A DNA stretch of 64,000 nucleotides from Gemmatimonadota bacterium (GCA_020348925.1 CP070758.1:3673688-3737687), one strand, 5' to 3'; counted from the stretch's first letter, positions 2,249 to 37,868 are shown. The notes: generated by a model not told the origin, from the sequence alone. Numbers and translations are program-made.

Positions 2249-2291
2249 AGGGAACTTCGATCCAATAGATTCACAAGACCCACATCAAACC

Positions 2292-3416: not shown

Positions 3417-3432
3417 ATGAAGGAGTGAATCG

Positions 3433-4452: not shown

Positions 4453-4633
4453 GTGTCGATTCTGACAGAGACATCGCAGTCTCAACCTTCGCACTATGAA
4501 ACAATTTTTTATTGCGCCTGTTTTTACCCTGGAAGCGTGTCTTTTGGAGTGCGATAATTATTGTGATATGTGAAACGTTTTGAGGTGACTTTGCGGTGTG
4601 TCGAAGCGATCGATCGTTTCAGTCCGATGGTGA

Positions 4634-4664
4634 GACTTCCGAAGTCTGAAAAACTTCGGAAGTC
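4634..4664. repeat. REP-like perfect palindrome
   Basis: GACTTCCGAAGT-N7-ACTTCGGAAGTC, 12-bp arms, intergenic. Confidence 0.7.
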
Positions 4665-4720
4665 CTGCAGGGTCACGGAAATCCTCCATCTCTCAACCCA
4701 ATAAAAAAACCAAAATGTTC

Positions 4721-4749
4721 TTGACATGCCGCAGAAATGGGGCTATTAT
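4721..4749 (+). promoter_or_regulatory. Sigma70-type promoter
   Basis: TTGACA-N17-TATTAT upstream of the Cys-rich protein. Confidence 0.75.
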
Positions 4750-4931
4750 TGGAATGGTCATAGTTTGTCCGAAATCAACCTTGCGTGATGTGAACGAGCT
4801 CCGAAAAGGGGTTATCCGCAAAAAACGCTGAAAAGGCAACCTGGGACCACCATTCTGAAATCATGAAAACAAAATAATACTGTCTCTTTTTAGTATTGCT
4901 TACTGCCAACCAAAACGTAAGGAGAACAGAG

Positions 4932-7271
4932 ATGGAAAAGAGTACTTCTTATTGTTGTCATACGGTGATGCTTGTTATTATTGCGGTGTGTGGTCTTGTG
5001 ATGCTGGTGACTCCCTTGAAGGTTCTCGGACAGGCGTATGAGGATGCCTGCGAGTGCTGGGACAGTGAAGGCTGCGCTTGCAGCGAAGATTACGACCCGT
5101 CCGGCGATTACACCTTCGACGAATTGTACGCGTGTGAGAGTGTCCCGCAGTGTAGCCTCATTGTATGTAACCAGGCTTACGTCTGCAGTCTGTTCAATGA
5201 AGGTGTGACCTATGAGGAACTCGTGACATGTGTAGAGGAGTTTGTCGATCTGTCTCAGTCCGGTCTGCCTGCAGGATTCTTTTTAGCATTTGCTTTACAA
5301 CAATGCAACTTCTCTATTGAAGAGATACTGGCAGCTGGCTTACCGCCGTGCTACCTGATGCTAAACATTTCCATCGGCGGTGTCACCATTTCCTGTGAGG
5401 TGCTCGATTACGTGACCTTAGAGGGGGTCATCCCATGTTTTACCCAGTTGATTGAGGATATGATATCTTCTGGAATAGGTTTGTTTTCTCCAGAATTAGC
5501 ACCATTCTTCAGTGCTATTATCAATTGCTCTATAGTTGAGCAATGCGATATACCTCCGGATGAGCTCGGTGTAACGGCGTGTGATCTCATGATATGTGAG
5601 ATTCTTAATTTTTTCTTGCAGGGAGGCCCAGGTAGCGGTGATCTCTGCGATCTGATCTATGACGCGACCTTTGACGATCTCGTCGCGTGTAGTGAAGAGT
5701 TGGAAGCTCTGATCGATCTACTCACTCAATTAGGTCAAGGAGGATCAGGATCTGGCGTGGAAATGGACCCGCTGTTTATGGTCCTGTCCATGCTGATGGG
5801 GTGCTCCGATGTTCCCCTGAATGATCTATTGGACTTTGGAATGCCGCCGTGCCTTCTCACGTTCATGCAAACCGCCACTAGCTGTTCTCTGTACGATAAG
5901 GGTGTCACCCCTGACGATTACACAGCGTGTGCCGAAGAGGTCATTCCGCTGTTTGGAGACCAGCTCGGAGGTCTCATCGGAGAAGAGCAGTTGTTGCTCA
6001 TATCGTATTCATATTCGTGCCAATTGCTCCAGGATGAGTGTGTAACTTTGGATTCGTTGCTCACAGAGGGTGTGCCACCGTGCTTTCTCCTTTTTTGTGG
6101 TGTATCCGCCTGTAGCACGTACAAAGCGGGTGCAAGCACACAGGAAATTCTCACATGCTTCGATGATGTTTTTACTGAGGAACTTCTCGCTCTGCTGGGA
6201 AGTATCTTTGGAGGTTTTGAATTAGATATAGAAACTTTGCGTGCATTCATGAGTTGCGATCTCTATCAGCAATGCGATATCCCTCTCGAAGAGATGCTGG
6301 GAAGTGTATCGGCGTGCAGTCTTTTAAAGTGCGTTGAACCTGTCCCTGTCTGCAGTCTGATCAAATCGGGTGTGGACCTCGGAGAGCTTATGTCTTGCGA
6401 AGTCCATGCCTGTAGTATTTATAAATGTGATCCGACAACGCTGTGCGATCTGATTTCAGACGATGTACCCGTCGGGGATCTCCTTGAGTGTGGGGCGCCT
6501 GCCTGCAGCATATATAAGTGTGATTCAAGTAAGCTGTGTGCCCTGCTTACTGAGAACGCAGGTGTCGGGGATCTCCTTGAGTGTGGGGCACCTGCCTGTA
6601 GTATATACAAGTGTGATTCGGGTAAGTTGTGCGATTTGGTCTCCGAAAACGTACCCGTTTCCGAGCTTTTAAAGTGTCCAATACCTCCGGATCCGTGCGA
6701 CATATACGACTGCGATCCGACGAAGCTGTGCGATCTGGTTGATGAAGATGTAGCCGTAGGGGATCTCCTGAATTGCAGTGCCAGTGCCTGTGACATCTAT
6801 ACCTGTGATGGGACGACCCTTCCCGATCTCATCACACAGGGGCAAGCGTGCGATCTCTATTCTCCCCCGTGCGAAGTACCCTTGTGCGACCTGATCGACG
6901 AGGGGGCACAACCGGCGGCGCTTCTCGCCTGCTTGGATAGCCCATGCGAGCTGTGTGATTGCGACGTTGCCGATGTCTGTCCACATCTCACGCCTGGTGA
7001 TGACTGCGATGGTGATTTCGGCCTCAACGGCGACGAATGCAACGGGGGGACAGATCCCTGTGTCTTCGATGACAGGGACGACGACACTGTCTCGGTTTTC
7101 TTCGACAACTGTCCTGACGATCCCAATCATGGTCAGGAGGACGGGGATGTGGACGGGGTGGGTGACGTCTGTGACAACTGTCCGGCGGTATACAATCCCG
7201 GCCAGGAGGATTTCAATGACGACGGTATTGGCAACCACTGCCAGGACTCCGACGACGACGGCGTACTGGAC
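4932..7271 (+). CDS. Secreted cysteine-rich repeat protein with thrombospondin type-3 repeats; truncated by gap
   Basis: AAGGAG RBS, hydrophobic signal segment, 31-aa repeats (CDxxxLCDLxxxxVxVGDLLECGAPACSIYK), C-terminal DNCPxxxNPGQEDxxxDGxG repeats. Confidence 0.85.
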
Positions 7272-7371
7272 NNNNNNNNNNNNNNNNNNNNNNNNNNNNN
7301 NNNNNNNNNNNNNNNNNNNNNNNNNNNNNNNNNNNNNNNNNNNNNNNNNNNNNNNNNNNNNNNNNNNNNNN
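7272..7371. other. 100-N assembly spacer
   Basis: Run of exactly 100 N; ORFs on both sides truncated. Confidence 0.99.
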
Positions 7372-7910: not shown

Positions 7911-9635
7911 TTATTCTTCTCTAATGATCTCCCCGTTGTGGATGACCAGTCGAACATCTAATAGAGATTCCAAGTTGTCGAGAGGGTTGCCATTTACTAC
8001 AAGTATATCGGCAATCTTGCACGGTTCAATGGTTCCCAATTTATCTTCGAGACCACATACATGAGCGGCGTGCTTCGTCCCGGCAACTATGATCTGCATG
8101 GGCGTCATCTCCGCCTCAACCATCAACCGAATTTCTGTAATGGGCATGCCTAAATCAAACGGAGTCACGTATCCACTATAATCCGTGCCCAAGGCGACTT
8201 TCCCTCCCGCCTGAACAAAACGCTGAAGATTATCTCTTGCCGCTGCACTCCAATTCAGGTTATGTAACTCGTCCGAACCGTTCCAGAGCTCAAGCGTCGG
8301 CACCCAGTACATATCCTCCTCGATCATGGACGCAATACGCCCATCGGACACATAATTGATGACCATATGATTCACATCGTCCACTCCGCCTTGAATGGCC
8401 ATATCAAGCTGGTAATGTCGGCTGATATGGGCAGTGACCAGTCTCCCCCTGTTATGTGCGGTATCCACAATCCTCGTGATTTCCTCCATGGAGAGCAGGG
8501 GCCACGTCCGACCCTGGAGATTATCCTCAATGGCAATCTTGATGATATCGGCTCCGACATCTATGAGCCAGTGAATGACTTCCTCCGCATCATCCGGTGA
8601 CGTCACCGGATAGTTTCCGTAGCCGCCCACCGTCGTTACAACCGGTCCTGCAGCCACGAGTCGCGCATTTCTATTGTCAGTGAGAAGAGCATCCCGTATG
8701 GAAAAAGTCTCTTCTGGAGAACTTATGACGCCTCCGAGATCGCGCACTGTCGTAACTCCGGATCTCGCCCACTCCTGCAAGTTATCTTCGTTATATGCAT
8801 TGTGCACATGGGTATTCATAAATCCCGGTAATATATACGCTCCCTGGACGTCAATTATTTCTGACCCTGTGGGAATCTCCACACTCGACCCCGTTCCCAC
8901 GGCTTTGATATACTCACCCTCAATGAGAATAACTGCATCCGGTATTGGCTCCGCACCTGTGCCGTCTATTAATAATCCATTCGTTATGGCCATACAGGCA
9001 TCACCCTCTTCACATGGATCGAAGGTACTGATGTGCTCACATTCACCAGTCAAAGGATTACAAGAGTCATCCGTACACGCGTCGCCGTCACCGCAGTCCA
9101 TCGGAGTGTGGCTGCACTCACCGGTATTCGAATCACAGAAATCATCCGTGCACAGATCACCCTCGTCGCAGTCTTTCGGCATCCCTTGACAGATTCCATC
9201 AGCACACGCATCGTTTTCCGTACAAGGGTCGCCATCATCGCATGGTGTTCCAGGATCAAGTAGGTCATGTCGACACTGAACGAGTAACGAATCGCAGTAA
9301 TCCTCAGTACAGGGATTTCCATCGTCGCAGTCCACTTCATCACAGGAGGAAACGCACGTTCCCATCCCCAGAATGAGGTTGACGATACCCAGAGCATCGA
9401 GAACATCGGCTTCTCCGTTACCATCGCAATCGGCCGCCCAGAGATCCTCTTCACTCGGCGGTGGTGACGTTCCCAGAACAATATTTACTGTCCGAAGAGC
9501 GTCCAGAATATTAACCTCTCCATCATCATTGACATCCCCCCTCTCTCTCTGTCCACTCATAATTTGGGAAGAGACGGAGACGACAAAGCCAATGAGGAGT
9601 ACGACGATGCCTGCACGGAAAACTCGCTTTTTCAC
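7911..9635 (-). CDS. Secreted amidohydrolase with N-terminal dockerin and CDDGNPCT-type repeats
   Basis: Signal peptide; GDVNDDGEVNILD...AADCDGNGEADVLD; four CDDGxxCTxDxC repeats; PGFMNTHVH, GVTTVRDLG, ALGTD, ADILVVNGNPL. Confidence 0.9.
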   Translation of the reverse strand: MKKRVFRAGIVVLLIGFVVSVSSQIMSGQRERGDVNDDGEVNILDALRTVNIVLGTSPPPSEEDLWAADCDGNGEADVLDALGIVNLILGMGTCVSSCDEVDCDDGNPCTEDYCDSLLVQCRHDLLDPGTPCDDGDPCTENDACADGICQGMPKDCDEGDLCTDDFCDSNTGECSHTPMDCGDGDACTDDSCNPLTGECEHISTFDPCEEGDACMAITNGLLIDGTGAEPIPDAVILIEGEYIKAVGTGSSVEIPTGSEIIDVQGAYILPGFMNTHVHNAYNEDNLQEWARSGVTTVRDLGGVISSPEETFSIRDALLTDNRNARLVAAGPVVTTVGGYGNYPVTSPDDAEEVIHWLIDVGADIIKIAIEDNLQGRTWPLLSMEEITRIVDTAHNRGRLVTAHISRHYQLDMAIQGGVDDVNHMVINYVSDGRIASMIEEDMYWVPTLELWNGSDELHNLNWSAAARDNLQRFVQAGGKVALGTDYSGYVTPFDLGMPITEIRLMVEAEMTPMQIIVAGTKHAAHVCGLEDKLGTIEPCKIADILVVNGNPLDNLESLLDVRLVIHNGEIIREE

Positions 9636-9710
9636 GACACCTCCTCGATCAGAACTTTTATACTTTGCTTTCGAGAAACCTCCTCAGGTTTCTTCCTTAA
9701 ATATCGAAGT

Positions 9711-12074
9711 TCATTTCATCAATACCATCCGCTTCGTTGCTGTGAATTCATCCGTTGAGAGTCGATAAAAATAGACCCCACTGGGTGCACTCTTGCCAAA
9801 CGCATCCCTCCCGTCCCAGGACACTTCATAAGAACCAGGGTTCCGAATATCATCGACCAGTGTTCTCACACCTTGCCCCAATACATTGTAAATCTTCAAA
9901 GTGACATGGAGGGGGGATTGATCACTGAAGACTGAATACTGAATACTCGTCGAAGGGTTGAAGGGATTGGGATAATTCTGACTGAGCCTGTACTCGATCG
10001 GCATCTGCACTTCCTTGACCAGAGCCATAAACCTGACAAAGTCTTCAACAGGCAGATAAGGCTTCAACGAATTCAGAAACGCAATCACTTCCGGGGTAAT
10101 CCCGGGTCGAGCGGCGTCCGGTTCGCACTGGCCACTCCCCAGAATCACATTCACAATACCGAGAGCATCCAAGACGTTCACGATTCCGTCTCCACTGCAA
10201 TCCGCCGCCCACAATTCATCCTCAGTCGGCGGATCTCCCACTCCCAGGACAATATTCACAACACCCAATACATCCAAAATATCGACAGCACAATCGGAGC
10301 TGACGTCCCCTCTCGTAAATTCTCCGAAGGAGACTGTCCCTCCTTCATGAAACACCAGAAGATCCCCGGTCTGAGCATTCACGAAGTCAACTTCACGAAA
10401 GAAAAGCTGCGTACTTCCACCAACAGGTGCCTCTTCACTGAGAGCGAATTGTACCTCGGCTACGGGTCCGATCCCACATTCAATCGTGTTCCCGGAAATA
10501 CGAAGGGTCAATAAACCAGGATTCGGAATATCCCAACCGAATTCACCGAAATTGATCGTCCTTGCTGTTGCCTCAATCCCGATGGGAGTCAAAAGGTCCT
10601 CATCATATCCCAATTCAAAGTAAGCACTATCCACAGAAACTTCAATCTTCGTTTGATTATCAACATTGATGAAAACAGTAGCCATGCCCCCCGGGGCAGT
10701 ACAGATGTGCGAAGCAGTCACGATAGCCGTCTCGTTGTATAAGCTAAAGATGACGTGGGCGATATTGGTGTTATCGATGTACGGACCACGTTGAATATCA
10801 CTATGTGCCGCATACGCCTCGAAGCGCTCGCTGCCGAAACCTTGGGCAAACAGTGGAATCAGGGAATTTGTGTGGTATCCTGAGTAATATCTGTAGCCCG
10901 GCATAACGCCGGCACCGTTATCCACGATTGGATTGAAGGTTGCCGGCGTACCCGAATCAGGCCCCAAGAGGTACCCGGTCTCATGGTCGCCAGTAACTAT
11001 CACCAAAGCCTCCTCCCAATTACTGTTCGCCTCCACCCATTCGAGTACTGCCTCGAAGGCGTTATCAAAATCGATCTGCTCCTCGATCATACGACCGAGC
11101 TGGTTGGCATGGTTGGCCCAGTCGACGGCACCACCCTCGATCATCAGGAAGAAACCGTCGGGATCGTTGTCAAGAACATTCAAAGCAGCTCTCGTCATCT
11201 CTTCCAGGGTTGGAACGGTCGAGATGAAGGGTTCAGTATACGGAGGTTGAGGATTGTTCGGGCCCGGACCGCCCGGTCGTGCCTGCTGCAATGTCAAACG
11301 TGTCTGGGCCGTGCCAAGAACACGGTCCGGTGTATGACCGTGGGCCAGAGCCTGGAACTCCTCCCGCGTCTGAATAAGAGTCCAGGGATCATCGATGCCG
11401 TCACCATCTCCATCACCACCTGCAACACCAGTTATGAGTTCCTCCCAGGTTGTCTGACCTCCGACGTACTCATAATAAAAACTGCTGCTCAGAAGGTTAC
11501 CCTCCTCATCATACATCGGGTGCCCAGCTCACATGATGACGTCAACAGCGCTGTCGTAAACCATTTCCCTGGCAATTTGAGTGTAGTTATTACGGGAGCG
11601 GTTATGGGCAACAAAACAGGCAGGAGTGCCTTGTGACCACTGGACACTCGTAATCACCCCGGTAGCCATGCCCAGGGCTTCTGCTCGTTCGATCACATGC
11701 TCCAACGGCTGCATTCCCGGACCGAAACAAATCGCTCCTTGATACGTCTTCACACCTGTCGACATGGCCGTTGCAGCGGCTGCAGAGTCTGTGTAGCGCG
11801 AAAGGACATAGTTGAAATCGCTCCAAGCCTGATCCGTATCATAGCTTCCCAACCACATAAAGGTGCTCATGGGGTAAGCACTATTCCAGGATTCATACTC
11901 TCTGACGATGCCTGTCCAGTACCGAGTGGCCGTAATCTGGTTGTATCCCCATCCATCCGCAATCATGACGATGACATGCTTGACTCCGGCATGGGCGATG
12001 CCACACAACAGAAGGATGAGGATAAGGTCTAACAAACACAATCCACTTTTAAAGAGTATTCTTCTCATAGGCAC
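9711..12074 (-). pseudogene. Alkaline phosphatase-cohesin-dockerin-T9SS-like CTD gene interrupted by one in-frame TGA (11529-11531)
   Basis: ORFs 11529..12074 and 9711..11516 share a frame and read VDVIM*AGHPMYD; MIADGWG, TDSAAAATA, EGGAVDWANH, TGDHETG, HTNSLIP all present; C-terminal QNYPNPFNP. Confidence 0.8.
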
Positions 12075-27442: not shown

Positions 27443-28900
27443 TTATATATTAAACAAATTTACTCGTGTTGTCAATATGGTAAGATTATGTACATAATGC
27501 GTACGAAATCTACGCGTTATGAGATGGCGAGTAGTTTTAAGATCTTTGAAGTAGGTGGTTAGGTTGATTTTCTTATTCGACAAACCGAGCTTCTTACGGA
27601 TGTTATTCCGGTGCCTTTCCACGGTCCTGTGCGAGGAATGTTTCAGACGGGCGATCTCCTTGGACGTTAGTCCGCTCCGGATCATGTTGCAGATTTCGAT
27701 CTCCTTGGGGGTCAGGCTGTGCAGCTTTCTCGAAATCCTATTCCCGAAGGAGGATATGAGTTGTTTCACATTTTCTTCTAAGAGTGTGATGTACATACTG
27801 TCAAGAGACGACGTCTCCTTTCGCAGTTTCGTCAAGAGCGGAAGCAAAAGACTGTCAACATTGGCCACGACCTCTCCCTCAATTCTCTCTTTTTCCACCC
27901 TCAACTGCCCTGTCAGTTCCCTGAGAGCAATATTTTTTTCCTGAAAGAGCACATTCTGCTTTGTAAGTTTCCTCTCACTTTTCCTGAGCTCTCCGACCGC
28001 CTTTTTTCGCTCAGCAATCTCCTGGCGAAGTTTCACATTCGCAGCATGCAACTCTGCCGTGCGCTTCATTACCCGCATTTCCAGTTCATCTTTGAGCCTT
28101 TGCAGTGCTTCCTCGGCCCGCTTCCTGTCCGTAATCTCCTGAGAGATGATCTGAACAGCAAATGGCTCGCCGTGTGTCTCCTTGATGGGTCGGATGCTCG
28201 ATGAAAACCAACGTTTGCCAGCAGGGAGTTCAAACGCATCCTCAAAATAATCCCCCTCCCCCGACTCGAAAACCCGACGATTCCTTTCCAGTAGCTCATG
28301 GCCCCTCTCAGGAAAAAGTTCATGCATTGATTTACCCACAAAAGCATCCGGTGCTCCACCGAGATTGAGAGCCCCCTTGGTATTCATCCATAACACGACG
28401 CCATCCCTATTAAAAAGCGTGATGGCCGTGCCTGAATGTTCCACAAGCAACCGATATCTCTCCTCGTTCTCTTTGAGAGCTTCCTCTGCCCGCACCCGCT
28501 CGGTGATGTCTCGAACCGATTCAACAATACCCGTCAATGCACCATCTTCGCTGAACAGCGGCGAGGCAATGATCTCGACAAGGGTTTTCTCTTTGTCTCC
28601 TGAGACGTGTTCGTGTAACATAGTGACAGGGCGTAACGTTTTTCGAACCTGCTCAAAGGGGCAGGGATGAGCAGTGCCATCGCATGGTATTTCCCGATCG
28701 TGGAAAGCCCGATAACAATAGAGGGGTCCGCTTTCTCCACCAATTGGGAGGCTCTTCCAGGCCGCATGGTTCATCAATTTCACTTCGTACTTGTCATTGA
28801 TGAGAAGAATCGGAATATCCACAGCATCTATGATACTGCGCATAAGTGTAGGGGTTGCAAACTTCTCCTTTTCCAACTCTGCGCAATCGATCTTTTCCGG
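27443..28900 (-). CDS. PAS-PAS-LuxR transcriptional regulator; 5' end lost in gap
   Basis: RDITER and QEITDRK PAS/PAC ends, coiled coil, LTPKEIEICNMIRSGLTSKEIA...TVERHRNNIRKKLG. Confidence 0.9.
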   Translation of the reverse strand, partial: PEKIDCAELEKEKFATPTLMRSIIDAVDIPILLINDKYEVKLMNHAAWKSLPIGGESGPLYCYRAFHDREIPCDGTAHPCPFEQVRKTLRPVTMLHEHVSGDKEKTLVEIIASPLFSEDGALTGIVESVRDITERVRAEEALKENEERYRLLVEHSGTAITLFNRDGVVLWMNTKGALNLGGAPDAFVGKSMHELFPERGHELLERNRRVFESGEGDYFEDAFELPAGKRWFSSSIRPIKETHGEPFAVQIISQEITDRKRAEEALQRLKDELEMRVMKRTAELHAANVKLRQEIAERKKAVGELRKSERKLTKQNVLFQEKNIALRELTGQLRVEKERIEGEVVANVDSLLLPLLTKLRKETSSLDSMYITLLEENVKQLISSFGNRISRKLHSLTPKEIEICNMIRSGLTSKEIARLKHSSHRTVERHRNNIRKKLGLSNKKINLTTYFKDLKTTRHLITRRFRTHYVHNLTILTTRVNLFNI

Positions 28901-29000
28901 NNNNNNNNNNNNNNNNNNNNNNNNNNNNNNNNNNNNNNNNNNNNNNNNNNNNNNNNNNNNNNNNNNNNNNNNNNNNNNNNNNNNNNNNNNNNNNNNNNNN
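28901..29000. other. 100-N assembly spacer
   Basis: Run of exactly 100 N. Confidence 0.99.
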
Positions 29001-29579
29001 AACGAACCGGCTTGCGCCTCCGCCTGCCTCGTAGGTGCCTTCAAGAAGACGCCTGAGGGAGCAGTTACATACAATGAGGATATATGTATCGGTTGCCGAT
29101 ACTGCATGACTGCCTGCCCCTTCTACATCCCCGCCTATGACTACGCCAGCCCCTTCAGTCCAAGGGTTAGCAAATGTACGCTCTGCTATGACAGGATTAA
29201 AGGGGGCGATGTGACGGCATGCGCCGAAGCTTGCCCTGCTGAAGCTATCCTATTCGGCAAAAGGAACGAGCTGATCGATATTGCCCGGCAACGGATTCGG
29301 GAAGATCCAGACGCATACGTAAACCATATTTATGGTGAGTATGAAGCCGGGGGAACGAGCTGGTTGTACCTTTCAGCAGTTCCCTTCGAGAAAATCGGAT
29401 TCCAGAAGGACATCGATAAAACTCCACCTCTGGCCCGTGCCGGGGGATTTCTCTCAATGGTTCCTGCCGTACTCGTGATATGGCCGGCTCTTCTGGGAGC
29501 CTTTTATTCTGTGGCAAAACGTCGGGATACAATTGCTGAAGTCACAGACACGACTAAAAAAAGAGAGGGGGTGAAATAA
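29001..29579 (+). CDS. 4Fe-4S dicluster protein, HmcB/HybA-like; 5' partial
   Basis: PACASAC, CIGCRYCMTACP, KCTLC, ACAEACP, IYGEYEAGGTSWLYLS, C-terminal TM helix. Confidence 0.9.
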   Translation, partial: NEPACASACLVGAFKKTPEGAVTYNEDICIGCRYCMTACPFYIPAYDYASPFSPRVSKCTLCYDRIKGGDVTACAEACPAEAILFGKRNELIDIARQRIREDPDAYVNHIYGEYEAGGTSWLYLSAVPFEKIGFQKDIDKTPPLARAGGFLSMVPAVLVIWPALLGAFYSVAKRRDTIAEVTDTTKKREGVK

Positions 29580-30799
29580 TGGAGGAGATCGCCGTTCGTA
29601 CTGGAGACTTTCAATCGTGGGCCAGGGAAAAGGTCTTCATGAGCAAGACCTTTGCTCAATATATGAAATCACTTTTCACCCCATTCAACCTTATCACTGG
29701 ACTGATCCTTCTCTTCGGACTTTCTCTCATTGTACTTCGATACATCCAGGGTCTGACGGTTGTCATGCATCCTTCCAATACGTATCCGTGGGGACTGTTT
29801 ATCGGTTTCGGACTCCTTTGCGTTGTTCCCCTTGCAGCTCCGGGATTTGTTATGGCCTCGGCCGTATATCTGTTTGGTCTCAGAGAATACCGTCCCCTCC
29901 TCAGACCCGCTGTTCTTATAGGTCTATTGGGCTATATTTCCGCCGTCGTCTTTCTTCTTATTGACCTGGGTCGTCCGTGGCGACTTCCTTATCCCATGCT
30001 GGTCTCTTACGGTACCGCCTCGATTCTTTTCTTCGTGTCCTGGTCGGTGGCATCACATGTGTTTCTCTATTTGATCGAGTTCTTTCCGGCCATTTTGGGG
30101 TGGCTTGGTGAGACTCGTTTCCGTCGCTGGATTTCGAAGTTGACTGTCGGTGCTGCCATGTTGGTCGTCATGTTGTCGACACTCCATCAGTCTGGTCTGG
30201 GAGCTCTCTTTCTCCTCATGCCGGGAAAAGTACATCCCCTCTGGTACTCGCCCTATCTTCCCGTGTTCTTCTTCATCTCCTCCATCTTCGCCGGACTTTC
30301 CATGGTTATCCTTGTGAGCACACTCTCTGCGAAACTACTTCGCGACAGAGCCGATGTGAGCTTCCTGGCAAACTTGGACAACCTCACTCTCGGGCTCGGG
30401 AAAGCTGCATCTGTTGTGCTCTTCACCTATTTCGCGATGAAGGTTGTCGGGATTGCCCATGGAAGCCATTGGAACTTCCTGAGCACACCATATGGTCTCT
30501 GGTTTCTTTTCGAGATGGTCTTGTTCGTACTTCTCCCCTGTTTTCTCTTCGCATCTGGCTTCAGAAACAGAAATGTCGCTCTTATACGATTTTCGTCCGT
30601 AATAACCATCGTGGGCCTCATCCTTAACCGGCTAAACGTTTCTATCATCACATTTAATTGGACTCTTCATCATCGTGAGTACCCCAAATGGACGGAATAC
30701 GTTATTGCCGTAACCATTATTACTATAGGAGTTCTCGTTTACAGATGGATTGTGAACCGAATGGCCGTACTCAGAGAATATGGGGGTGAAGAACATTAG
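29579..30799 (+). CDS. NrfD/PsrC-family membrane subunit, HmcC/HybB-like
   Basis: Many TM helices; PWGL, DLGRPWRL, LSTLHQSGLG, HPLWYS, NRLNV; TAATG coupling to upstream gene. Confidence 0.9.
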   Translation: MEEIAVRTGDFQSWAREKVFMSKTFAQYMKSLFTPFNLITGLILLFGLSLIVLRYIQGLTVVMHPSNTYPWGLFIGFGLLCVVPLAAPGFVMASAVYLFGLREYRPLLRPAVLIGLLGYISAVVFLLIDLGRPWRLPYPMLVSYGTASILFFVSWSVASHVFLYLIEFFPAILGWLGETRFRRWISKLTVGAAMLVVMLSTLHQSGLGALFLLMPGKVHPLWYSPYLPVFFFISSIFAGLSMVILVSTLSAKLLRDRADVSFLANLDNLTLGLGKAASVVLFTYFAMKVVGIAHGSHWNFLSTPYGLWFLFEMVLFVLLPCFLFASGFRNRNVALIRFSSVITIVGLILNRLNVSIITFNWTLHHREYPKWTEYVIAVTIITIGVLVYRWIVNRMAVLREYGGEEH

Positions 30800-31083
30800 A
30801 GAAAGGAGGATTATACCTACTAAAATGTGGAGTATACAATTCGCTCACTCATGACCAAAGATGTTCTCATTGGGATTCTCATGTTATGTAATTCTCTTGA
30901 TGAAAGCCCATAGTCAGGAAGGCAGAATGAGTCCATTACCTCTTATTACAATCCATGATGATTGCTCTCCGTTGAAAAGGGCCGCTGATGGAGTTAGTAT
31001 GTTTTTACGGTTTAAGCCGGCGCAGTTTTTTGGAGGGCTGCCCCTGAAAACTACTCACACAATACCTAAGGAGGATATGCATT

Positions 31084-31779
31084 ATGAATACCCTGTTAGA
31101 TTATATGACTCGGACGTTGGGAATTGAGTACCTCATAGCAGTCGTGTTCATTGTCGGATTCGTCCTGTATTGGCGTTTCCTGACGGGTCCGGAGCAGATG
31201 AGAGTGAGAGAGGTCATAAGAAGGATCAGAGATGTCGTTGGTGGATTTGTGCTCCCGGATCACGTCTTCTATCACCAGGGTCATGCCTGGGCAAGAATAG
31301 ACGACAAGAACGTGGCCACCATCGGACTGGACGATTTTGCTCAGAAACTTGTGGGTAAAATCGATGCCGTTCACATGCCGGGCGTCGGTTCCCCACTCAG
31401 ACAGGGGGAGAAGGGATGGTCCTTGGAGGTCAATTCGCGACCAATCGACATGCTTTCGCCGGTAGACGGAGAAATCCTTTCGGTGAATGAAGAACTCATC
31501 AATTCACCCGAAACAGTTAATACTGATCCCTATGGTAAAGGCTGGTTGATGAAGGTTCGTGCACCGAGGATTTCAGCGAATGTCAAAAGTCTCCTGTCTG
31601 GTGATCTTGCCAAAAGGTGGATAGAAGAGGCGAGAGAAAATCTCCTGTCCAGGGGCAATTATGAGCTTGGCCTCATGTATCAAGATGGAGGTTTGCCCGT
31701 TGATGGTATGGCGAGAAACTTAGATCCAGAGAGATGGGATACAATAGCGAAGGAATTTTTTCTCATCACCGAAGAATGA
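31084..31779 (+). CDS. Membrane-anchored GcvH-like protein with HmcD-like N-terminus, no lipoyl lysine
   Basis: TM segment EYLIAVVFIVGFVLYWRFL; YHQGHAWA, IGLDDFA, SPVDGEI..VN, DPYGKGW; lipoyl hairpin reads EVNSR. Confidence 0.85.
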   Translation: MNTLLDYMTRTLGIEYLIAVVFIVGFVLYWRFLTGPEQMRVREVIRRIRDVVGGFVLPDHVFYHQGHAWARIDDKNVATIGLDDFAQKLVGKIDAVHMPGVGSPLRQGEKGWSLEVNSRPIDMLSPVDGEILSVNEELINSPETVNTDPYGKGWLMKVRAPRISANVKSLLSGDLAKRWIEEARENLLSRGNYELGLMYQDGGLPVDGMARNLDPERWDTIAKEFFLITEE

Positions 31780-31855
31780 GAAATAGGTGCGTTGCGCCTT
31801 ATTGACGAAGATTACATTTCTTTTCTTCTTTTAGGTTGAAGGAGACGATGATATT

Positions 31856-32707
31856 GTGAAAAAAGAAAAGGGACGAAAAGAGCGAAAAGGGCGTCTCATC
31901 CCCGAAGGGGAATTGAAGTGTGTCTGGATGGAAGCCGGGGTCGTCTCGTACAAGTTGTGCGATTACGAGTATGAGTGCGAGAGATGTCCCTTTGATCAGG
32001 TTCTGAAAAAGAGAGCAAAAGCATCTGTTTCTCAAAACACACTTTCGGGGAGACACTCAGGCTTACAAAGGATATCGACAGAAAAGGAGGCTGCGAAAAA
32101 TCCACCGGTGGTTAACGAAACCATAAATTTTGACAAGATCTTTCAAGAATTTTACGACATAGAATTTCAAGAGGGTTTATTCTATCACCCCGGACATACC
32201 TGGGTCGATATCGAAAATCCTAACATCGTGAAGATAGGCCTTGACGGTTTTGCTGGGAAATTTCTTCTCGGAATAAAGATGGCCATTCTACCAACAGTGA
32301 GGAATAGAACGGACCGTGGGCAGGTTTGTTGTTGGATTGTTGAAGAGGAGGGAACGCTGCCCATTATTGCTCCACTTACCGGGGCCGTGATTGCCATCAA
32401 CCACCGACTCTCCAGGGAACCAACTCTCATTAACAGAAATCCCTATGAACAGGGTTGGCTCATGAAAATAGAACCTGAAGACTTGCACCGCGACCTTCAA
32501 TACCTCTCTCGTGAACATGAGATACCTCCTCACCATAAAATGGAACTGGAGACATTGAGAACAACACTTGAATCTCACTTGAGAGGAAACTGGAAGCATG
32601 TGGGGCCGACACTGTGTGACGGCGGAAGAATGCTCGATCATATCCGGGATATGATCGGTCCGAAAAGATATTTCGAAATCGTAAGCACCTTTTTCAAGAT
32701 AAAGTAA
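31856..32707 (+). CDS. GcvH-like protein with N-terminal four-Cys domain, no lipoyl lysine
   Basis: CVWMEAGVVSYKLCDYEYECERCPFD; YHPGHTWV, IGLDGFA, APLTGAVIAIN, NPYEQGW; hairpin reads VEEEG. Confidence 0.85.
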   Translation: MKKEKGRKERKGRLIPEGELKCVWMEAGVVSYKLCDYEYECERCPFDQVLKKRAKASVSQNTLSGRHSGLQRISTEKEAAKNPPVVNETINFDKIFQEFYDIEFQEGLFYHPGHTWVDIENPNIVKIGLDGFAGKFLLGIKMAILPTVRNRTDRGQVCCWIVEEEGTLPIIAPLTGAVIAINHRLSREPTLINRNPYEQGWLMKIEPEDLHRDLQYLSREHEIPPHHKMELETLRTTLESHLRGNWKHVGPTLCDGGRMLDHIRDMIGPKRYFEIVSTFFKIK

Positions 32708-32779
32708 GCGGTTTTCAAGCAATCTTCTGTGATCTGAGACACTGGCGAGTGAAACCCCATATAACTAAAATATACAAGT

Positions 32780-32831
32780 ATCCCCTCATTGCACGAGTTC
32801 GTGAGAATCTGAAGCTGAGGGGATCTTTTTT
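32780..32831 (+). terminator. Possible intrinsic terminator
   Basis: ATCCCCTCA...TGAGGGGAT followed by CTTTTTT; long loop. Confidence 0.45.
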
Positions 32832-32933
32832 GCATAATAACGAAAAAATTTCGTTTTTGATTTTAACGTCAGTTTTATATATTAGTATCTGATCGATCGC
32901 ACTCTGACAATCTTTTCACGGCGCAGGAGAACG

Positions 32934-34493
32934 ATGAAATTCACAAGATTACTCAGTTTCCGACTTGTCTGCCTTATGCTAACAGTTATGATCGTCTTTT
33001 TCGGACTCTATACGTATATCAATATTCACGTTCATACCTCCCACCTCATGGAAAACGTACACCTCTCCGCCAACCGGGTCAGTGACGTGATCAAAAGATC
33101 GACCCATTACAGCATGCTCTTGAATCGCAGGGATGACCTGTACCACACAATCCAAACCCTCGGTGACGAACCCGGAATGGACGGGATCAGAATTTACAAC
33201 AAACGGGGTGAAATCATGTTTTCCACCACCCCGGGTGAGGACGGAACAAGTGTCGATCTCCAGGCTGAAGCCTGCTACGTGTGTCACGCCGAGGAGAAAC
33301 CCCTGGAAGCTTTACCCATCACAAAACGCTCCCGAATCTTTTCCTCGCCTCAGGGCCATCGCGTCATGGGCGTCATAAATCCCATCATGAACGAGCCCGG
33401 TTGTTACAACGCCGAATGCCATGCTCATCCCTCCACGCAAGCAGTTCTCGGCGTTCTGGATGTGAAAATGTCCTTGGCTCAGGTGGATACAAGAGTGGCC
33501 GAAAGCAGAACACGAATGATCTCGTATGCGGTTCTCCTGATTGTGATAGTCACCATACTCTCGGCAGGATTCATCTTTTTTATGGTCCACTCTCCTGTGA
33601 AAAAACTCATAGCAGGCACTCAGGAGATTTCCAGCGGCAATCTGAACCATGAAATAGACATCCAATCGTCCGATGAGATAGGTCATCTCGCCCAGTCTTT
33701 CAATCTCATGACGCGCAACCTCTCCAAAGCGCAGGATCACTTGTGTCAGATGGAAAAGATGGCTTCCGTCGGAAAGCTTTCCGCCACAGTCGCTCATGAG
33801 ATCAACAATCCTCTGGCAGGAGTGCTCACCTATACGAAACTCGTCATGAGAATGCTCAAAAAGGAGCGTGTAACATCCGAGGAAAAAAAGTCGGTGGAGA
33901 AGTATCTGACGTTTATTAAAAGCGAAACAGCGCGCTGCGGTGATATTGTTAAGAATTTGCTCCTCTTTTCCAAGAGAACCGGGGGCGATTTCCGGCATGA
34001 GAGTCTCGACACGATCATAGAGAAGAGCCTCCAGTTGGTGAATCACCACCTGGAAATTCAGGGGATCACTCTGGAGAAAGTTCTATGTGAGGAGGACGAC
34101 ATCATTTTCTGCGACGCCAACCAGTTACAACAGGCCTTCATTGCCCTCTTCGTCAACAGTGTCGAGGCCATGCCCAAGGGTGGGACCTTGAAGGTAAAAA
34201 CCGACTGTAAGAAAGGCGATGATACCGTCCGCATTGCCATTTCGGATTCAGGCCACGGAATTCCCGAGGAGGTGAGGCCGAATATCTTTGATCCCTTTTT
34301 CTCAACCAAAAAGGACGAGAAACGGATCGGACTCGGTTTGTCTGTCGTCTACGGAATCATACAGCGACATGGCGGCGCAATTGACGTTCAATCGGAACCT
34401 GACAAGGGAACGATCTTCACTATCACGCTGCCCAGACAAGAACCTGAAAAGGACGAGAAACGCGTTGAATTAATAGAAGAAGCTGTCGCTTAG
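32934..34493 (+). CDS. Sensor histidine kinase with periplasmic c-type heme motifs and HAMP domain
   Basis: Two TM helices flanking CYVCH and CYNAECH; DEIGHLAQSFN; AHEINNPL; DSGHG, FDPFFSTK, GLGLS. Confidence 0.93.
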   Translation: MKFTRLLSFRLVCLMLTVMIVFFGLYTYINIHVHTSHLMENVHLSANRVSDVIKRSTHYSMLLNRRDDLYHTIQTLGDEPGMDGIRIYNKRGEIMFSTTPGEDGTSVDLQAEACYVCHAEEKPLEALPITKRSRIFSSPQGHRVMGVINPIMNEPGCYNAECHAHPSTQAVLGVLDVKMSLAQVDTRVAESRTRMISYAVLLIVIVTILSAGFIFFMVHSPVKKLIAGTQEISSGNLNHEIDIQSSDEIGHLAQSFNLMTRNLSKAQDHLCQMEKMASVGKLSATVAHEINNPLAGVLTYTKLVMRMLKKERVTSEEKKSVEKYLTFIKSETARCGDIVKNLLLFSKRTGGDFRHESLDTIIEKSLQLVNHHLEIQGITLEKVLCEEDDIIFCDANQLQQAFIALFVNSVEAMPKGGTLKVKTDCKKGDDTVRIAISDSGHGIPEEVRPNIFDPFFSTKKDEKRIGLGLSVVYGIIQRHGGAIDVQSEPDKGTIFTITLPRQEPEKDEKRVELIEEAVA

Positions 34494-34509
34494 GGAGTAA
34501 GAAACGGTC

Positions 34510-35853
34510 ATGGAAAATATAGATGTCGGGATCCTGGTTGTGGACGACGAGCTCGTTGTGAGAGACTCGCTGTACAATTGGTTCAAAGAGGACGGCTACC
34601 GGGTGGACACGGCCGAAGACGCCAAAATGGCTTTGAAAAAGCTGCAGGAGAGCTCCTGGGATATCGTGCTCCTGGATATCAAAATGCCTGGTATGGACGG
34701 CATGGAACTCCAGAAGAGAATCAAAGAGATCGACGCCAATATGATTGTGATCATGATTACGGCCTACGCCTCTGTGGACACGGCCGTGCAGGCACTCAAG
34801 GAGGGCGCCTTCGATTACATCACCAAGCCCTTTGATCCGGACGACATGGGCCACCTCATCAGAAATGCCGTTGCCCAGCGAAAACTGACAGAGGAGAACA
34901 TCCAACTCCGCCAAAAAATTGACGAGTTGTCCAAATTCGATGAAATCATCGGCGACAGCCCAGCCATGAAACGGGTCTTTGAGCTGGTCGAAACGGTCGC
35001 GCAATCCGACGCCACTGTCGTCATTCACGGTGAGAGCGGGACCGGCAAGGAACTTGTGGCCCGGGCCGTTCACAGCAACAGCCCGCGCCGCTATTTTCCC
35101 ATCATCCCTGTCAACTGTGGAGCTCTGCCAGAGGGGATACTCGAGAGTGAGATTTTCGGACACGAGAAGGGAGCCTTCACAGGCGCCCAATACCGGCGCA
35201 AAGGGAAACTTGAGATGGCCGACGGAGGCACCCTCTTCCTGGATGAGATCAGCAGTATCGGTACAAAGACGCAGATGGATCTGTTGCGGGCGCTGGAGAC
35301 GAAGCAGTTCACACGTCTGGGCGGAACCAAGGAGATCACTGTCGATTTCAGGATTATATGTGCTACGAACCAGAACCTTGAAAAGATGGTCGAGGAGGGA
35401 ACCTTTCGAGAGGACCTCTATTATCGCATCAATGTCTTCTCCATCTACCTCCCCCCTCTGCGGGAGCGGCGTTCGGACATCCCGCTCCTGGCGAACCACT
35501 TCGCCCAGAAATATGCCTTGGCGATGAACAAAAAAATCACCCAGATCTCACCCGGGGCTTTGGATCTATTGGTTCAGCACGACTGGCCGGGCAATGTCAG
35601 AGAATTGGAGAACGCCATTGAGCGGGCCATGGTTGTCGGCAAACCGCCCCGTATTATGGCAGAGGATCTTCCCTTTCAGCTCAGTGCGAAGAAAACGGAT
35701 CTGACGTCCGATTCCCTGGAGGAAATCGAAAAAACTCATATACAGCATATTTTGGAGCGCATGGAGTGGAACATCACACGCTCTGCCGAGGTCCTCAAAA
35801 TCGATCGTGTCACCCTCTACAACAAAATTAAAAAATACGGCCTGAAAAGATAA
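34510..35853 (+). CDS. Sigma54-dependent NtrC/AtoC-family response regulator
   Basis: VVDDE, LLDIKMP, GESGTGKE, GAFTGA, FREDLYYR, WPGNVREL, Fis-type HTH. Confidence 0.96.
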   Translation: MENIDVGILVVDDELVVRDSLYNWFKEDGYRVDTAEDAKMALKKLQESSWDIVLLDIKMPGMDGMELQKRIKEIDANMIVIMITAYASVDTAVQALKEGAFDYITKPFDPDDMGHLIRNAVAQRKLTEENIQLRQKIDELSKFDEIIGDSPAMKRVFELVETVAQSDATVVIHGESGTGKELVARAVHSNSPRRYFPIIPVNCGALPEGILESEIFGHEKGAFTGAQYRRKGKLEMADGGTLFLDEISSIGTKTQMDLLRALETKQFTRLGGTKEITVDFRIICATNQNLEKMVEEGTFREDLYYRINVFSIYLPPLRERRSDIPLLANHFAQKYALAMNKKITQISPGALDLLVQHDWPGNVRELENAIERAMVVGKPPRIMAEDLPFQLSAKKTDLTSDSLEEIEKTHIQHILERMEWNITRSAEVLKIDRVTLYNKIKKYGLKR

Positions 35854-35858
35854 CGTGA

Positions 35859-36404
35859 ATGGCTTTCATCTGTGTTGTTCCTGTACATCTGCCACAAGAA
35901 TCCCTCCTCATCCCTCTTCTGGAACACATCTCATCATCCTTCCATCGAGAAACACGAATCGTTTTTCTCCCCATCGATCCCTCTTTCGCTTACGACCACT
36001 CCAGGAAACAGCATAACTCTTCCCTGCTCCTGGCCAAGCTGGTGGATATCAAGCCAAAGGACGCTCTCAGGATAGTGGGCGTCACCGATCTCGACCTCTT
36101 CATTCCTATCCTCACCTTCGTTTTCGGCGAAGCCCAGCTCAGCGGTCCTGCCTCCATCGTCTCAACGCAGAGGCTGAGAAACGAATTTTACGGTCTCCCA
36201 AAAAACGACGGACTGTTGCAGCAACGTTTGGAGAAAGAAGCGATCCACGAGCTCGGCCACACCTTCGGCCTCGTCCATTGCCGGAATGATCTGTGCGTGA
36301 TGAGACCCTCAACCTACGTCGAGAACATCGATCTGAAGCCACCGCAACTGTGTTACTCCTGCCTGAAAACCATCGACGAAAAATTGAAGGCCATTCCCCC
36401 CTAA
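35859..36404 (+). CDS. Archaemetzincin-family Zn metalloprotease
   Basis: FVFGEA, HELGHTFGLVHC, CVM, LCYSC. Confidence 0.92.
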   Translation: MAFICVVPVHLPQESLLIPLLEHISSSFHRETRIVFLPIDPSFAYDHSRKQHNSSLLLAKLVDIKPKDALRIVGVTDLDLFIPILTFVFGEAQLSGPASIVSTQRLRNEFYGLPKNDGLLQQRLEKEAIHELGHTFGLVHCRNDLCVMRPSTYVENIDLKPPQLCYSCLKTIDEKLKAIPP

Positions 36405-36505
36405 TCTTTCCGCTCCGAACACCCCTCAAAAATGAAGCGGACTGAAAATCGTAAAGTGCCGGCGTGACATTCTGGGAAGTGAGCCCCCCGAGGGAGAACC
36501 CGAAA

Positions 36506-36623
36506 TGGCGGAAAATGCGAGGGGAGTGTCGTATTTTCCGACAATCGTATAACTCATGAATATAGTAGAAACATACGGCACTTTACGGATATACAACAAA
36601 TTCTATTGTCGGAAAATCCTACG
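36506..36623. promoter_or_regulatory. Array of candidate enhancer-binding-protein sites
   Basis: TGTCG-N7-CGACA (TGT-N11-ACA) at 36527-36543; related 17-mers at 36506 and 36607. Confidence 0.6.
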
Positions 36624-36732
36624 TTTTAATGCTGTTTTCTTCCACTCCAAGACCCACCGTTTTTTTTATTCATCATTCATAATTTATAAATAAACATAGT
36701 CTTAGATTGCAAAGATTTTCGAAGCACGAATT

Positions 36733-36750
36733 CCGGCACACTTCTTGCAA
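36733..36750 (+). promoter_or_regulatory. Sigma54 (-24/-12) promoter
   Basis: CCGGCACACTTCTTGCAA, GG-N10-GC, after an AT-rich spacer and enhancer-like sites. Confidence 0.72.
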
Positions 36751-37200
36751 TTTTATATACCTGACAAGTTTTCAATCAAGGGCACGGTTCAATGAAAAAT
36801 GCACCGGTTTTCACACCCGATGAACTTCGTACAGCGACAAGAAGCAGCGACTCACGTGAACAGGGATTTTCGGATATTAATTTCTCAGAGAATGTCGAAG
36901 AAGGCACTCACTTTTTTCAATCTTTTTAGAAAATCATTCATTGCACGCAATCGAAAAGTGAGTGCCGTGTATTTTTCTTTTCATCGGAGGAATGGGAGAA
37001 TTCTCCTTAAAAAGATTTGAATGGGGGCAGGGGATTCTCCCGTTCCCCACTGAAGAAGTAGAGGGAACATAAAGCGGAGTTAAGTTCAACCTGGGGCAGT
37101 ATGTAATAATTTCTTCCCGCCTCATGGTTCATTCTCTATGATTAGGAACATTTCTCGAAGGGAGAGATGGTTTGCTGCTATCGTATCCGTCGGGTCACAG

Positions 37201-37248
37201 AACGCCTTCTTTCCGCTCGTTTGAAAAAACGAGGAAGGGGCGTTTTTT
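37201..37248 (+). terminator. Intrinsic terminator
   Basis: AACGCC/GGCGTT outer stem, CTCGTTT-GAAA-AAACGAG inner stem, T6 tail. Confidence 0.65.
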
Positions 37249-37358
37249 CACTGTAGGGGTTCGAGGATTCGAGGAGCCTGTTGTCTCCCCTATTATCGTC
37301 CCCCATATCAAGGGGGGACAACAGGAGGGTGTTAAGAACAGGAGAGACATAACAGAGA

Positions 37359-37768
37359 GAAGATTAAAGATCAAAGATGTGACCCCAAATTATGAAGCTT
37401 GAGCCGCAGATGGTCCCGGCGAAGGCTTTGGGTTGGACTTTCTTTTTGCTTCTTCCACCTTTCGGAAATTGTCAATATTTCCGAAAGGTACATCAGGTGG
37501 TTCGGAGGAAAGGATGCACTTTCCTCCGAGGGGTAACAGGATTTCGATGCGAGCTGGCGGAGCATAGAAATCCGCCATAGGGGCGAGAGCCCCTTGGAAG
37601 TGTTGAGCAAAGCGAACACACTTCTTCTTGGCCAGCAAAGAAAAAGAATGGGATTCATATCAACTTAGGGACGTTACCATCAAAAAACTGGGAGGGAAGA
37701 TTAAACTTTAAAGATGCGACCCCAATAGCCTTTTACTAGCAAAGAAAAAGAAGGGCTTTCATATCAAC
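37359..37768. repeat. Composite direct-repeat and multi-hairpin element at contig end
   Basis: Repeat A at 37359-37388 and 37696-37725 (26/30); repeat B at 37634-37664 and 37738-37768 (28/31); five hairpins at 37457-37624. Confidence 0.7.
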
Positions 37769-37868
37769 NNNNNNNNNNNNNNNNNNNNNNNNNNNNNNNN
37801 NNNNNNNNNNNNNNNNNNNNNNNNNNNNNNNNNNNNNNNNNNNNNNNNNNNNNNNNNNNNNNNNNNNN
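37769..37868. other. 100-N assembly spacer
   Basis: Run of exactly 100 N. Confidence 0.99.

Follow-up and report, generated by a model that had tools for sequence, protein, structure and literature searches.

A 64,000-nucleotide (nt) stretch of the Gemmatimonadota genome GCA_020348925.1 (CP070758.1:3673688-3737687; hereafter the window) contains seven co-oriented genes on the + strand, at 29001-36404, that were identified using Pfam and NCBIfam (Table 1). They encode the 3' part of an HmcB/HybA-like iron-sulfur (Fe-S) protein, an NrfD-family membrane subunit resembling HmcC/HybB, two proteins with the fold of the glycine cleavage protein GcvH (H-fold proteins 1 and 2), a sensor histidine kinase with haem-c motifs, a sigma-54 activator and an archaemetzincin-family protease. 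A previous interpretation made from the DNA alone (the sequence-only reading) described seven co-oriented genes and a sigma-54 promoter with enhancer-like sites, and these genes, the promoter element and the inverted repeats downstream of them were all recovered here. It also noted the absence of gcvP, gcvT, lpd and lipoate ligase genes. None of these is among the seven genes, but 8.8 kb of contig makes the absence little informative.

The genome record is a 5.04-Mb concatenated assembly in which about 200 spacers, each of exactly 100 N, join the contigs. The true contig of the finding is 29001-37768 (~8.8 kb). Everything to the left of 28901 and to the right of 37868 is on other contigs, and the genes that flank the finding in the window are therefore not its real neighbours.

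Table 1. Features on and bordering the contig at 29001-37768, in window coordinates.
Feature	Position	Strand	Basis and remarks
100-N spacer joining two contigs	28901..29000		Not a sequencing gap inside a locus
HmcB/HybA-like four-cluster Fe-S protein, 3' part, 191 codons	29001..29579, in frame from 29004	+	NF045715, 270.7 bits; Fer4_11
HmcC/HybB-like NrfD-family integral membrane subunit, 406 amino acids (aa)	29579..30799	+	PF03916, 77.4 bits; NF045714, 436.6 bits
Membrane-anchored H-fold protein 1, 231 aa	31084..31779	+	PF01597, 88.1 bits; HmcD-like helix, GcvH domain, C-terminal extension with invariant DGG
Soluble H-fold protein 2	31856..32707	+	PF01597, 65.9 bits; N-terminal C-x12-C-x5-C-x2-C, Glu at lipoyl position, C-terminal DGG extension
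Terminator-like hairpin with U-run, between effector and regulatory genes	32776..32835	+	-20.6 kcal/mol, z -2.76, 3 of 200 shuffles as stable; not listed by the generic terminator scan
Sensor histidine kinase	32934..34493	+	Pfam; helix, Cache/PAS-like periplasmic domain, helix, HAMP, HisKA, HATPase_c
NtrC-type sigma-54 activator	34510..35853	+	Pfam; receiver, AAA+ with GAFTGA, Fis-type helix-turn-helix (HTH)
Archaemetzincin-family zinc protease	35859..36404	+	NF033823, 155.2 bits (cut-off 145)
Enhancer-like inverted repeats	36450..36622		110-285 nt upstream of the 36734-36749 element
Sigma-54-type -24/-12 element, CGGCAC-N5-TTGCA, CGGCACACTTCTTGCA	36734..36749	+	Only match with at most 1 mismatch to TGGCAC-N5-TTGCW in the 64-kb window
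45-codon open reading frame (ORF) 3' of the promoter	36792..36929	+	Nothing supports gene status
Dispersed short repeats ending the contig	37190..37768		BLASTN; 57 further matches elsewhere in the genome

This gene set is a genuine and widely conserved unit. The sequence-only reading had treated it as one system, which non-conservation in other genomes would refute; we found the set conserved in a paralogous copy, in two distant genomes and at four metagenome loci. The paralogous locus of the same genome (L002) is complete, with an anchored H-fold protein, HmcB, HmcC, a Cys-rich H-fold protein, kinase, activator and protease, and the last three are 42, 65 and 49% identical to their window counterparts, respectively. 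A leucine-rich repeat protein gene lies further upstream of this module. Among the species genomes sampled, the source genome has one family-level relative, and the others are related only at the domain level. Two of the latter, G011 and G025, contain full sets, with kinase, protease and activator genes on one strand and an H-fold/HmcB/HmcC (effector) operon on the other. In a sister genus, the kinase and protease genes stand together on a separate contig from the effector operon. The operon there (L003) continues, at 8801-11937, into mobA, fdhD, fdhE and a gene for a molybdopterin oxidoreductase with a twin-arginine translocation (Tat) signal, which suggests a formate-dehydrogenase-like partner in this genus.

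Larger samples show the same association. Strong matches to the kinase sensor domain were obtained in four genomes of a 41-genome sample, and these same genomes encode the protease and carry long H-fold genes in a cluster. For metagenomes, a kinase alignment seeded on generic kinase-core motifs was used, and the resulting 80 loci were scored with profiles from our own sets. At least one of protease, H-fold protein, HmcB and HmcC was found at 12 of the 80 loci, with the full set at four of them (L021, L022, L027 and L030) and partial sets at the other eight. The kinases of these 12 loci comprise nine with the two-haem sensor, one cut by the contig end (L027) and two PAS kinases beside activator and protease genes (L028 and L029). 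Counted over all 80 loci, the two-haem sensor also occurs 12 times, and at three of these loci (L034 and two short contigs, L078 and L088) no member of the four families is present. The 65 loci with ordinary kinases serve as an unplanned control, and none has a protease, H-fold, HmcB or HmcC gene. A scan of the genome collection with protein 2 alone gave only two loci, this method being limited for single proteins. In a protein atlas, clusters of like proteins were found in Thermodesulfobacteriota, Bacteroidota and Ignavibacteriota.

Where the set is divided between two units, the H-fold genes are always with HmcB/HmcC behind a sigma-54 promoter, and the protease gene is with those of the kinase and activator. 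In the window, where all seven genes are co-linear, the terminator-like hairpin lies at the equivalent border. This arrangement bears on the role of the H-fold proteins, which the sequence-only reading took for an adaptor or signalling module linking the membrane complex to the two-component system. The evidence favours a different placement, as the H-fold genes travel with HmcB/HmcC, the hairpin divides the two halves of the window module and protein 1 has an HmcD-like anchor. We regard it as rather unlikely that the H-fold proteins are signalling adaptors through which the kinase, activator or protease would sense the condition of the membrane module, with the protease acting on them, for instance by degrading the anchored one or setting it free. 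The H-fold genes are not transcribed with the regulators wherever the units separate, and neither H-fold-kinase nor H-fold-protease fusions were found; indeed, our search for fused forms longer than 405 aa containing the H-domain region gave none, which is weak evidence. The protease or regulator may nonetheless be linked to the H-fold proteins, given loci without HmcB/HmcC. Two of them, L028 and L029, combine a PAS kinase, activator and protease with a gene for an H-fold protein carrying two tandem Cys4 modules, and have no HmcB/HmcC within 5 kb. At a third, G003:C68, the protease gene lies about 1.5 kb from a long H-fold gene. In addition, the catalytic motif of the protease is intact in 10 of 11 copies and the gene always belongs to the regulatory unit, which would be compatible with such a task.

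The H-fold proteins come in two kinds, and each of the five genome-derived modules has at least one membrane-anchored and exactly one Cys-rich member. In a 13-sequence alignment, all of them have PYxxGW and HxW motifs in addition to the GcvH core, and a helical C-terminal extension of ~50 residues in which DGG is invariant. The protein-1 family comprises 1260 clusters at an expect value (E) of 1e-10 or better, with source names that include KSB1, Syntrophaceae, Thermodesulfobacteriota and Nitrospinae, and PF28260 is pre-assigned on most of these relatives. The protein-2 family comprises 354 clusters. All residue counts given below are from the best 120 of each family. The AlphaFold2 model of protein 2 has a mean predicted local distance difference test (pLDDT) score of 74.5; the core and C-terminal extension are mostly above 90, with a dip to ~60-67 at the DGG loop, and the N-terminal 90 residues are of low confidence. 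Its core superposes on Thermus thermophilus GcvH (1onl) with a template modelling (TM) score of 0.93 and a root-mean-square deviation of 1.3 Å (Foldseek E 5e-11), and the model also matches GcvH-L (5a35) at E 1e-5.

The site that carries the lipoyl-lysine in GcvH is occupied differently in these proteins. The column holds Ser in protein 1 (HMMER alignment to E. coli GcvH, 3a8i) and Glu in protein 2 (13-sequence alignment). This pattern is a family feature, with Ser at 110/120 in the protein-1 family and Glu (94/120) or Asp (16/120) in the protein-2 family. Accordingly, the claim of the sequence-only reading that the H-fold proteins are non-lipoylatable agrees with the canonical site in the window and in 110 of 120 members of either family. 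Both proteins also miss the NCBIfam cut-offs for GcvH (NF002270, 117: 97.7 and 67.5; TIGR00527, 115.85: 89.1 and 57.8, for proteins 1 and 2, respectively), and a canonical GcvH, scoring 164.5 bits to Pfam, is encoded elsewhere in the genome. Both anchored H-fold proteins of the sister genus have Lys in the canonical column and, judging from that residue, some members of the family could be lipoylated.

It could be argued that the H-fold proteins keep a swinging-arm cofactor or another reactive group, either on a Lys one past the canonical site or on a conserved Cys near the hairpin, and act as cytoplasmic carriers in the manner of GcvH, LbpA or DsrC. Lys does follow the canonical position in 104/120 protein-1 relatives, the sister-genus proteins mentioned above have it in the canonical column itself, and Cys159 of protein 2 is kept in 117/120 relatives. 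Nevertheless, we consider such a carrier role very improbable. The residue pairs at the site in the three H-fold proteins of the window module are Ser-Arg, Asn-Arg and Glu-Gly, and Arg, the window's residue after the lipoyl position in protein 1, is found there in 14/120 relatives, so that the conserved feature is a basic residue rather than Lys specifically. Lipoyl domains are no longer lipoylated when their lysine is displaced by a single position. Moreover, all H-fold proteins score below the GcvH cut-offs, and no conserved lipoate ligase gene lies nearby; the one that was seen, in L022, is beside an E1 dehydrogenase gene.

Outside the GcvH core, the two proteins differ. Residues 2-35 of protein 1 match the HmcD model NF045712 with 41.4 bits (cut-off 34). 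Protein 1 has a single hydrophobic helix with a net positive stretch behind it, and therefore the H-domain should be cytoplasmic; the HmcD-like anchor points to a subunit of a membrane complex. A complex prediction of HmcC with protein 1, both entered as alignments, scored 0.10 against a mark of 0.32, which counts neither way. Protein 2 has Cys22, Cys35, Cys41 and Cys44 in the arrangement C-x12-C-x5-C-x2-C-P, each kept in 116-119 of 120 relatives, and this four-Cys module is probably metal-binding. Pfam searches at E up to 10 gave no meaningful match for the Cys4 module, the C-terminal extension or the kinase sensor domain. We regard these three, the last being the two-haem sensor, as undescribed domains.

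The sequence-only reading assigned the first two genes to an Hmc/Hyb-like Fe-S/NrfD pair, and the profile searches concur: the best NCBIfam models are HmcB and HmcC, and the second-best are HybA/HybB and QrcC/QrcD. The match of the HmcB-like fragment spans positions 112-291 of NF045715, and a C-terminal membrane helix is predicted at fragment residues 149-167. Membership of the HmcC-like protein in the NrfD/PsrC family is clear from its PF03916 score, three times the gathering score of 25.8, and a crude scan gives nine hydrophobic segments.

The same reading held that the 5' part of the operon was lost in the gap before 29001. It is most likely present on another contig of the same assembly, L001. 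A tblastn search of the genome with the seven window proteins showed that L001 breaks off within an HmcB gene, leaving its 5' part (L001:9584-10366) with the Tat motif RRDFLK, and that this is preceded by a sigma-54-type element, TGGCACACTCTTTGCG, and a third membrane-anchored H-fold gene. The last 443 nt of L001 and the first 443 nt of the finding's contig are 94.1% identical. Among public contigs aligned to the end of L001, one of 7730 nt (run X1) covers L001:8400-10368 unbroken and extends 5.6 kb beyond; in the 443-nt overlap, eight of its ten differences from L001 are the window's letters. In run X2, both overlap variants are present as short contigs. Furthermore, the genome totals of two HmcC-like genes, two haem-sensor kinases and five long H-fold genes fit two modules, not three. 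The end of L001 and the start of the window contig are thus probable alleles of one locus, split by strain variation.

Another reading is that the Fe-S/NrfD pair merely anchors a periplasmic hydrogenase or molybdoenzyme, encoded at another site, to the membrane, with the H-fold proteins as its assembly factors. The molybdoenzyme genes that continue the sister-genus operon would fit this, as would L030, where a gene with a molybdopterin Fe4S4 domain is directly upstream of the HmcB-like gene. HmcB copies without a Tat signal could also be exported by hitch-hiking on such a partner, a route established for FdnH-type subunits. The window HmcB, in contrast, has its own Tat signal, and no such enzyme gene adjoins the module in either copy of the source genome or in G011, G025, L021 or L022. 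Two loci have cytochromes c instead (c3-type or tetrahaem). On balance, the anchor explanation is unlikely. At L021, we also observed a second module back to back with the first (290-5527, - strand), consisting of a Tat-HmcB, HmcC, a 383-aa class III multihaem cytochrome and a second two-haem kinase, in which no H-fold gene was detected; it is possibly an intermediate between Nhc-type complexes and the H-fold type.

Turning to the regulatory genes, the kinase carries the motifs CYVCH (CxxCH) and CYNAECH (Cx4CH) between two predicted membrane helices. Both motifs, as well as Met61, are invariant in 17 of 17 relatives, and the designation of this protein as a haem kinase in the sequence-only reading is consistent with such conservation of putative haem-c sites. 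The sensor family counts 506 representatives at E 1e-30 or better. The sensor model (pLDDT 83.8) shows a long stalk helix and a PAS/Cache-like sheet, and its fold matches WalK, KinD, DctB and CitA, with weaker matches to GSU0935 and GSU0582, which are haem-c sensors. The activator is an NtrC-type bacterial enhancer-binding protein, scoring 116 bits to PF00072, 235 bits to PF00158 and 49 bits to PF02954 (HTH_8), with GAFTGA present in the translation.

The protease belongs to the archaemetzincins (M54), with an intact HExxHxxGxxH and four-Cys motif, HELGHTFGLVHC...C.M...C..C. Of 11 module copies, 10 retain HExxHxxGxxH and nine the four-Cys motif. A third, stand-alone archaemetzincin of the source genome (G000:C1:332469-332996) directly follows two genes resembling archaeal-type phenylalanyl-tRNA synthetase subunits (N-termini assigned by eye) and is not part of the system. 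Equally high archaemetzincin matches were obtained in G001 and G025 on contigs other than those of their modules. Judging from their gene neighbourhoods, bacterial archaemetzincins may occur in at least two contexts.

The contig continues, downstream of the protease gene, into a region with regulatory features. The sigma-54 pattern alone is weak, since matches to TGGCAC-N5-TTGCW with at most two mismatches number 26 in the window and 24 are expected. The inverted repeats upstream of the element include a perfect palindrome, TGTCG-N7-CGACA at 36527-36543, the only perfect one in the window, as well as inverted arms of 23 nt (36528-36550 and 36600-36622) and perfect inverted arms of 12 nt (36450-36461 and 36576-36587). 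The motif TGTCGGAWWATCCTACG is common to this tail and to the region upstream of the paralogous operon at L002, and the window-tail element therefore probably responds to an activator of the same type. In L001, L002, L003, L015 and L016, the first H-fold gene is preceded, at a distance of 30-160 nt, by GG-N10-GC elements that agree with the consensus in 9-11 of 11 letters. A single universal enhancer motif was not found across all loci. A different, 18-nt motif, ATGTAAATWATTTCAACA, is common to L001 8100-8350 and L003 4000-4130, upstream of the sigma-54 promoters of these orthologous operons; it is unlike the TGTCGG motif found in the window tail and at L002, and may be a site resembling those of integration host factor (IHF) or the site of a second regulator.

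Between the 36734-36749 element and the contig-end repeats, no gene or known RNA was recognised. Neither the 45-codon ORF nor a 73-codon ORF has relatives in any fetched locus or in the genome. Rfam gave no family at gathering score in the window, and the only match of the tail (E up to 1) is a sub-threshold snoRNA family taken as chance. Neither sigma-70 promoters nor terminators exceeded the level of shuffled sequence in generic scans of the contig. The promoter could drive a small RNA, a small protein or a gene past the contig end. The contig-end repeats are short, 80-100% identical and present in dozens of genome copies, several of them at contig ends, and the assembly broke here because of them. 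The paralogous operon, too, has one copy of this dispersed repeat in front of it, at about 5380-5480 of L002.

Some other features of the window and of L001 concern the assembly rather than the system. The window spans at least four contigs, with N spacers at 7272-7371, 28901-29000, 37769-37868 and 62587-62686, and gene neighbourhoods across these spacers are artefactual. A gene for a PAS/coiled-coil/LuxR-type regulator (27443-28900, - strand; domains read from the translation only) runs into the spacer before the finding, but it is on a different contig and unrelated to it. Upstream on L001, divergent housekeeping genes and an alkaline phosphatase gene were present, and no cytochrome was found.

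Among known systems, this one would be most like a trimmed Hmc/Nhc or Hyb electron arm placed under a ZraSR/AtoSC-like switch. The likeness to Hmc/Nhc of Desulfovibrio lies in the best NCBIfam models, in the B-C-D gene order, which is kept, and in the HmcD match of the protein 1 anchor. Unlike in Hmc, the HmcD-like part is here the N-terminus of a fusion to an H-fold domain, extra H-fold subunits exist, the HmcB/HmcC scores are under the equivalog cut-offs, and a dedicated haem kinase, sigma-54 activator and protease are encoded. The multihaem cytochrome HmcA/NhcA is absent from the two module copies of the genome, the gene before HmcB on both L001 and L002 being that of an H-fold protein; elsewhere, cytochromes c occur at only two loci. 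Nor were the cytochrome b HmcE and the CCG-domain HmcF detected with Pfam and NCBIfam among the genes of the contig or the paralogous locus. HmcC is described in PMC4215793 as the NrfD-like subunit of Hmc, with hmcE and hmcF lacking from Nhc; that paper also presents the cytoplasmic partner of Hmc as unknown and Hmc itself as important for surviving oxygen stress.

HybA/HybB of E. coli hydrogenase 2 and QrcC/QrcD share the two-subunit Fe-S/NrfD quinone module, as reflected in the second-best models, but the present locus has no hydrogenase or cytochrome subunit genes, and we know of no H-fold subunits in those two systems. According to PMC6303296, QrcD is electrogenic, a property also proposed for HybB and HmcC, and the protons that it uses to reduce quinone are of cytoplasmic origin; its quinone-site and proton-path residues are mostly conserved in those two proteins.

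With respect to GcvH, LbpA and GcvH-L, the H-fold proteins have the same fold and match Pfam GCV_H, but they differ in the absence of the lipoyl lysine, in the extra N-terminal anchor or Cys4 module, in the DGG extension and in having no gcvP/T or sHdr genes alongside. The Geobacter chemoreceptors GSU0935 and GSU0582 (PDB 3b42 and 3b47) combine an extracytoplasmic PAS/Cache-like fold with CxxCH, as the kinase sensor does (Foldseek E 2e-5 and 8e-3), whereas the superposition is weak (TM 0.26-0.42) and the protein here has two haem motifs, one of them Cx4CH, and a kinase rather than chemoreceptor output. AtoSC and ZraSR provide the best NCBIfam models for the kinase core and activator, with the same domain order; all scores are nevertheless under the equivalog cut-offs, the sensor domain is different, and a protease gene lies inside the unit. 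The sequence-only reading knew of no functional description of the system, and our full-text literature searches, with subscription journals outside their coverage, likewise gave no publication on the gene set.

Taken together, we favour, with slightly better than even confidence, the explanation that a redox-sensing two-component system switches on a periplasm-to-quinone electron module with cytoplasmic H-fold subunits. The regulatory part would consist of a membrane kinase with two c-type haems in its periplasmic Cache/PAS-like domain, the NtrC-type activator and a cytoplasmic archaemetzincin. The effector part, expressed from a sigma-54 promoter, would consist of a Tat-exported HmcB-like Fe-S protein, a haem-less HmcC-like quinone subunit and two kinds of cytoplasmic H-fold subunit. 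The haems would report the periplasmic redox state or a haem ligand, upon which the kinase would phosphorylate the activator and the effector operon would be turned on, along with, in the co-linear arrangement of the window, the activator's own gene. The Fe-S/NrfD module might then connect carriers or enzymes of the periplasm with the menaquinone pool by electron transfer. Its periplasmic partners would vary by genome, being c3-type or tetrahaem cytochromes in some and a formate-dehydrogenase-like molybdoenzyme in others, and protons would be taken from the cytoplasm by analogy with QrcD. The H-fold proteins would serve as structural or regulatory subunits at the cytoplasmic face in place of HmcE/HmcF, not as lipoyl carriers.

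Several observations weigh against this explanation. First, the window HmcB fragment (270.7), the 3'-truncated L001 part (382.4), the complete L015/G025 orthologue (358.3) and the paralogue (257.3) all fall short of the HmcB equivalog cut-off of 420 (NF045715). The same is true for HmcC, where the cut-off is 550 (NF045714) and the window protein scores 436.6 and its relatives 440.8 and 329.6. Function can thus be transferred from Hmc by analogy only. Second, several HmcB copies have no Tat signal, and their membrane side is ambiguous. Third, NrfD subunits of this kind have, to our knowledge, no cofactor that carries electrons across the membrane, and hence there is no obvious electron path to the cytoplasmic Cys-rich H-fold proteins. 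Fourth, the G025 orthologue of protein 1 gave no HmcD match at E 1e-5. Fifth, L028, L029 and G003:C68 have the activator and/or protease beside an H-fold gene with no HmcB/HmcC within reach, an arrangement by which the H-fold proteins may be tied to the regulatory part more than assumed. Sixth, the join of L001 to the window contig is probable, as judged from alleles rather than from sequence reading through it.

Having set out the redox-switched electron module, we would note a bolder version of it. In this version, the anchored and Cys4 H-fold proteins form a cytoplasmic metal- or thiol-based relay on the haem-less NrfD subunit that replaces HmcE/HmcF and transmits the state of the quinone site to the cytoplasmic side. 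It would do so through a conformational signal or as a new redox or persulfide carrier placed where the lipoyl arm used to be, and the archaemetzincin would process these H-fold proteins. We hold this to be speculative and unlikely. If true, a physiological substrate would be known for the first time for a prokaryotic archaemetzincin, and the H-protein fold would have gained a new use.

Anaerobic respiration is coupled to quinones most commonly through Fe-S/NrfD pairs, and the pair described here adds to them two new kinds of H-fold subunit and a dedicated two-haem sensor system. Thousands of members of the H-fold family are named 'glycine cleavage system protein H' in databases; this name is almost certainly wrong and inflates the annotation of glycine cleavage in metagenomes from sediments and anaerobes. 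Finally, we know of no established role for bacterial archaemetzincins, and the gene set provides them with a fixed, testable genetic context.

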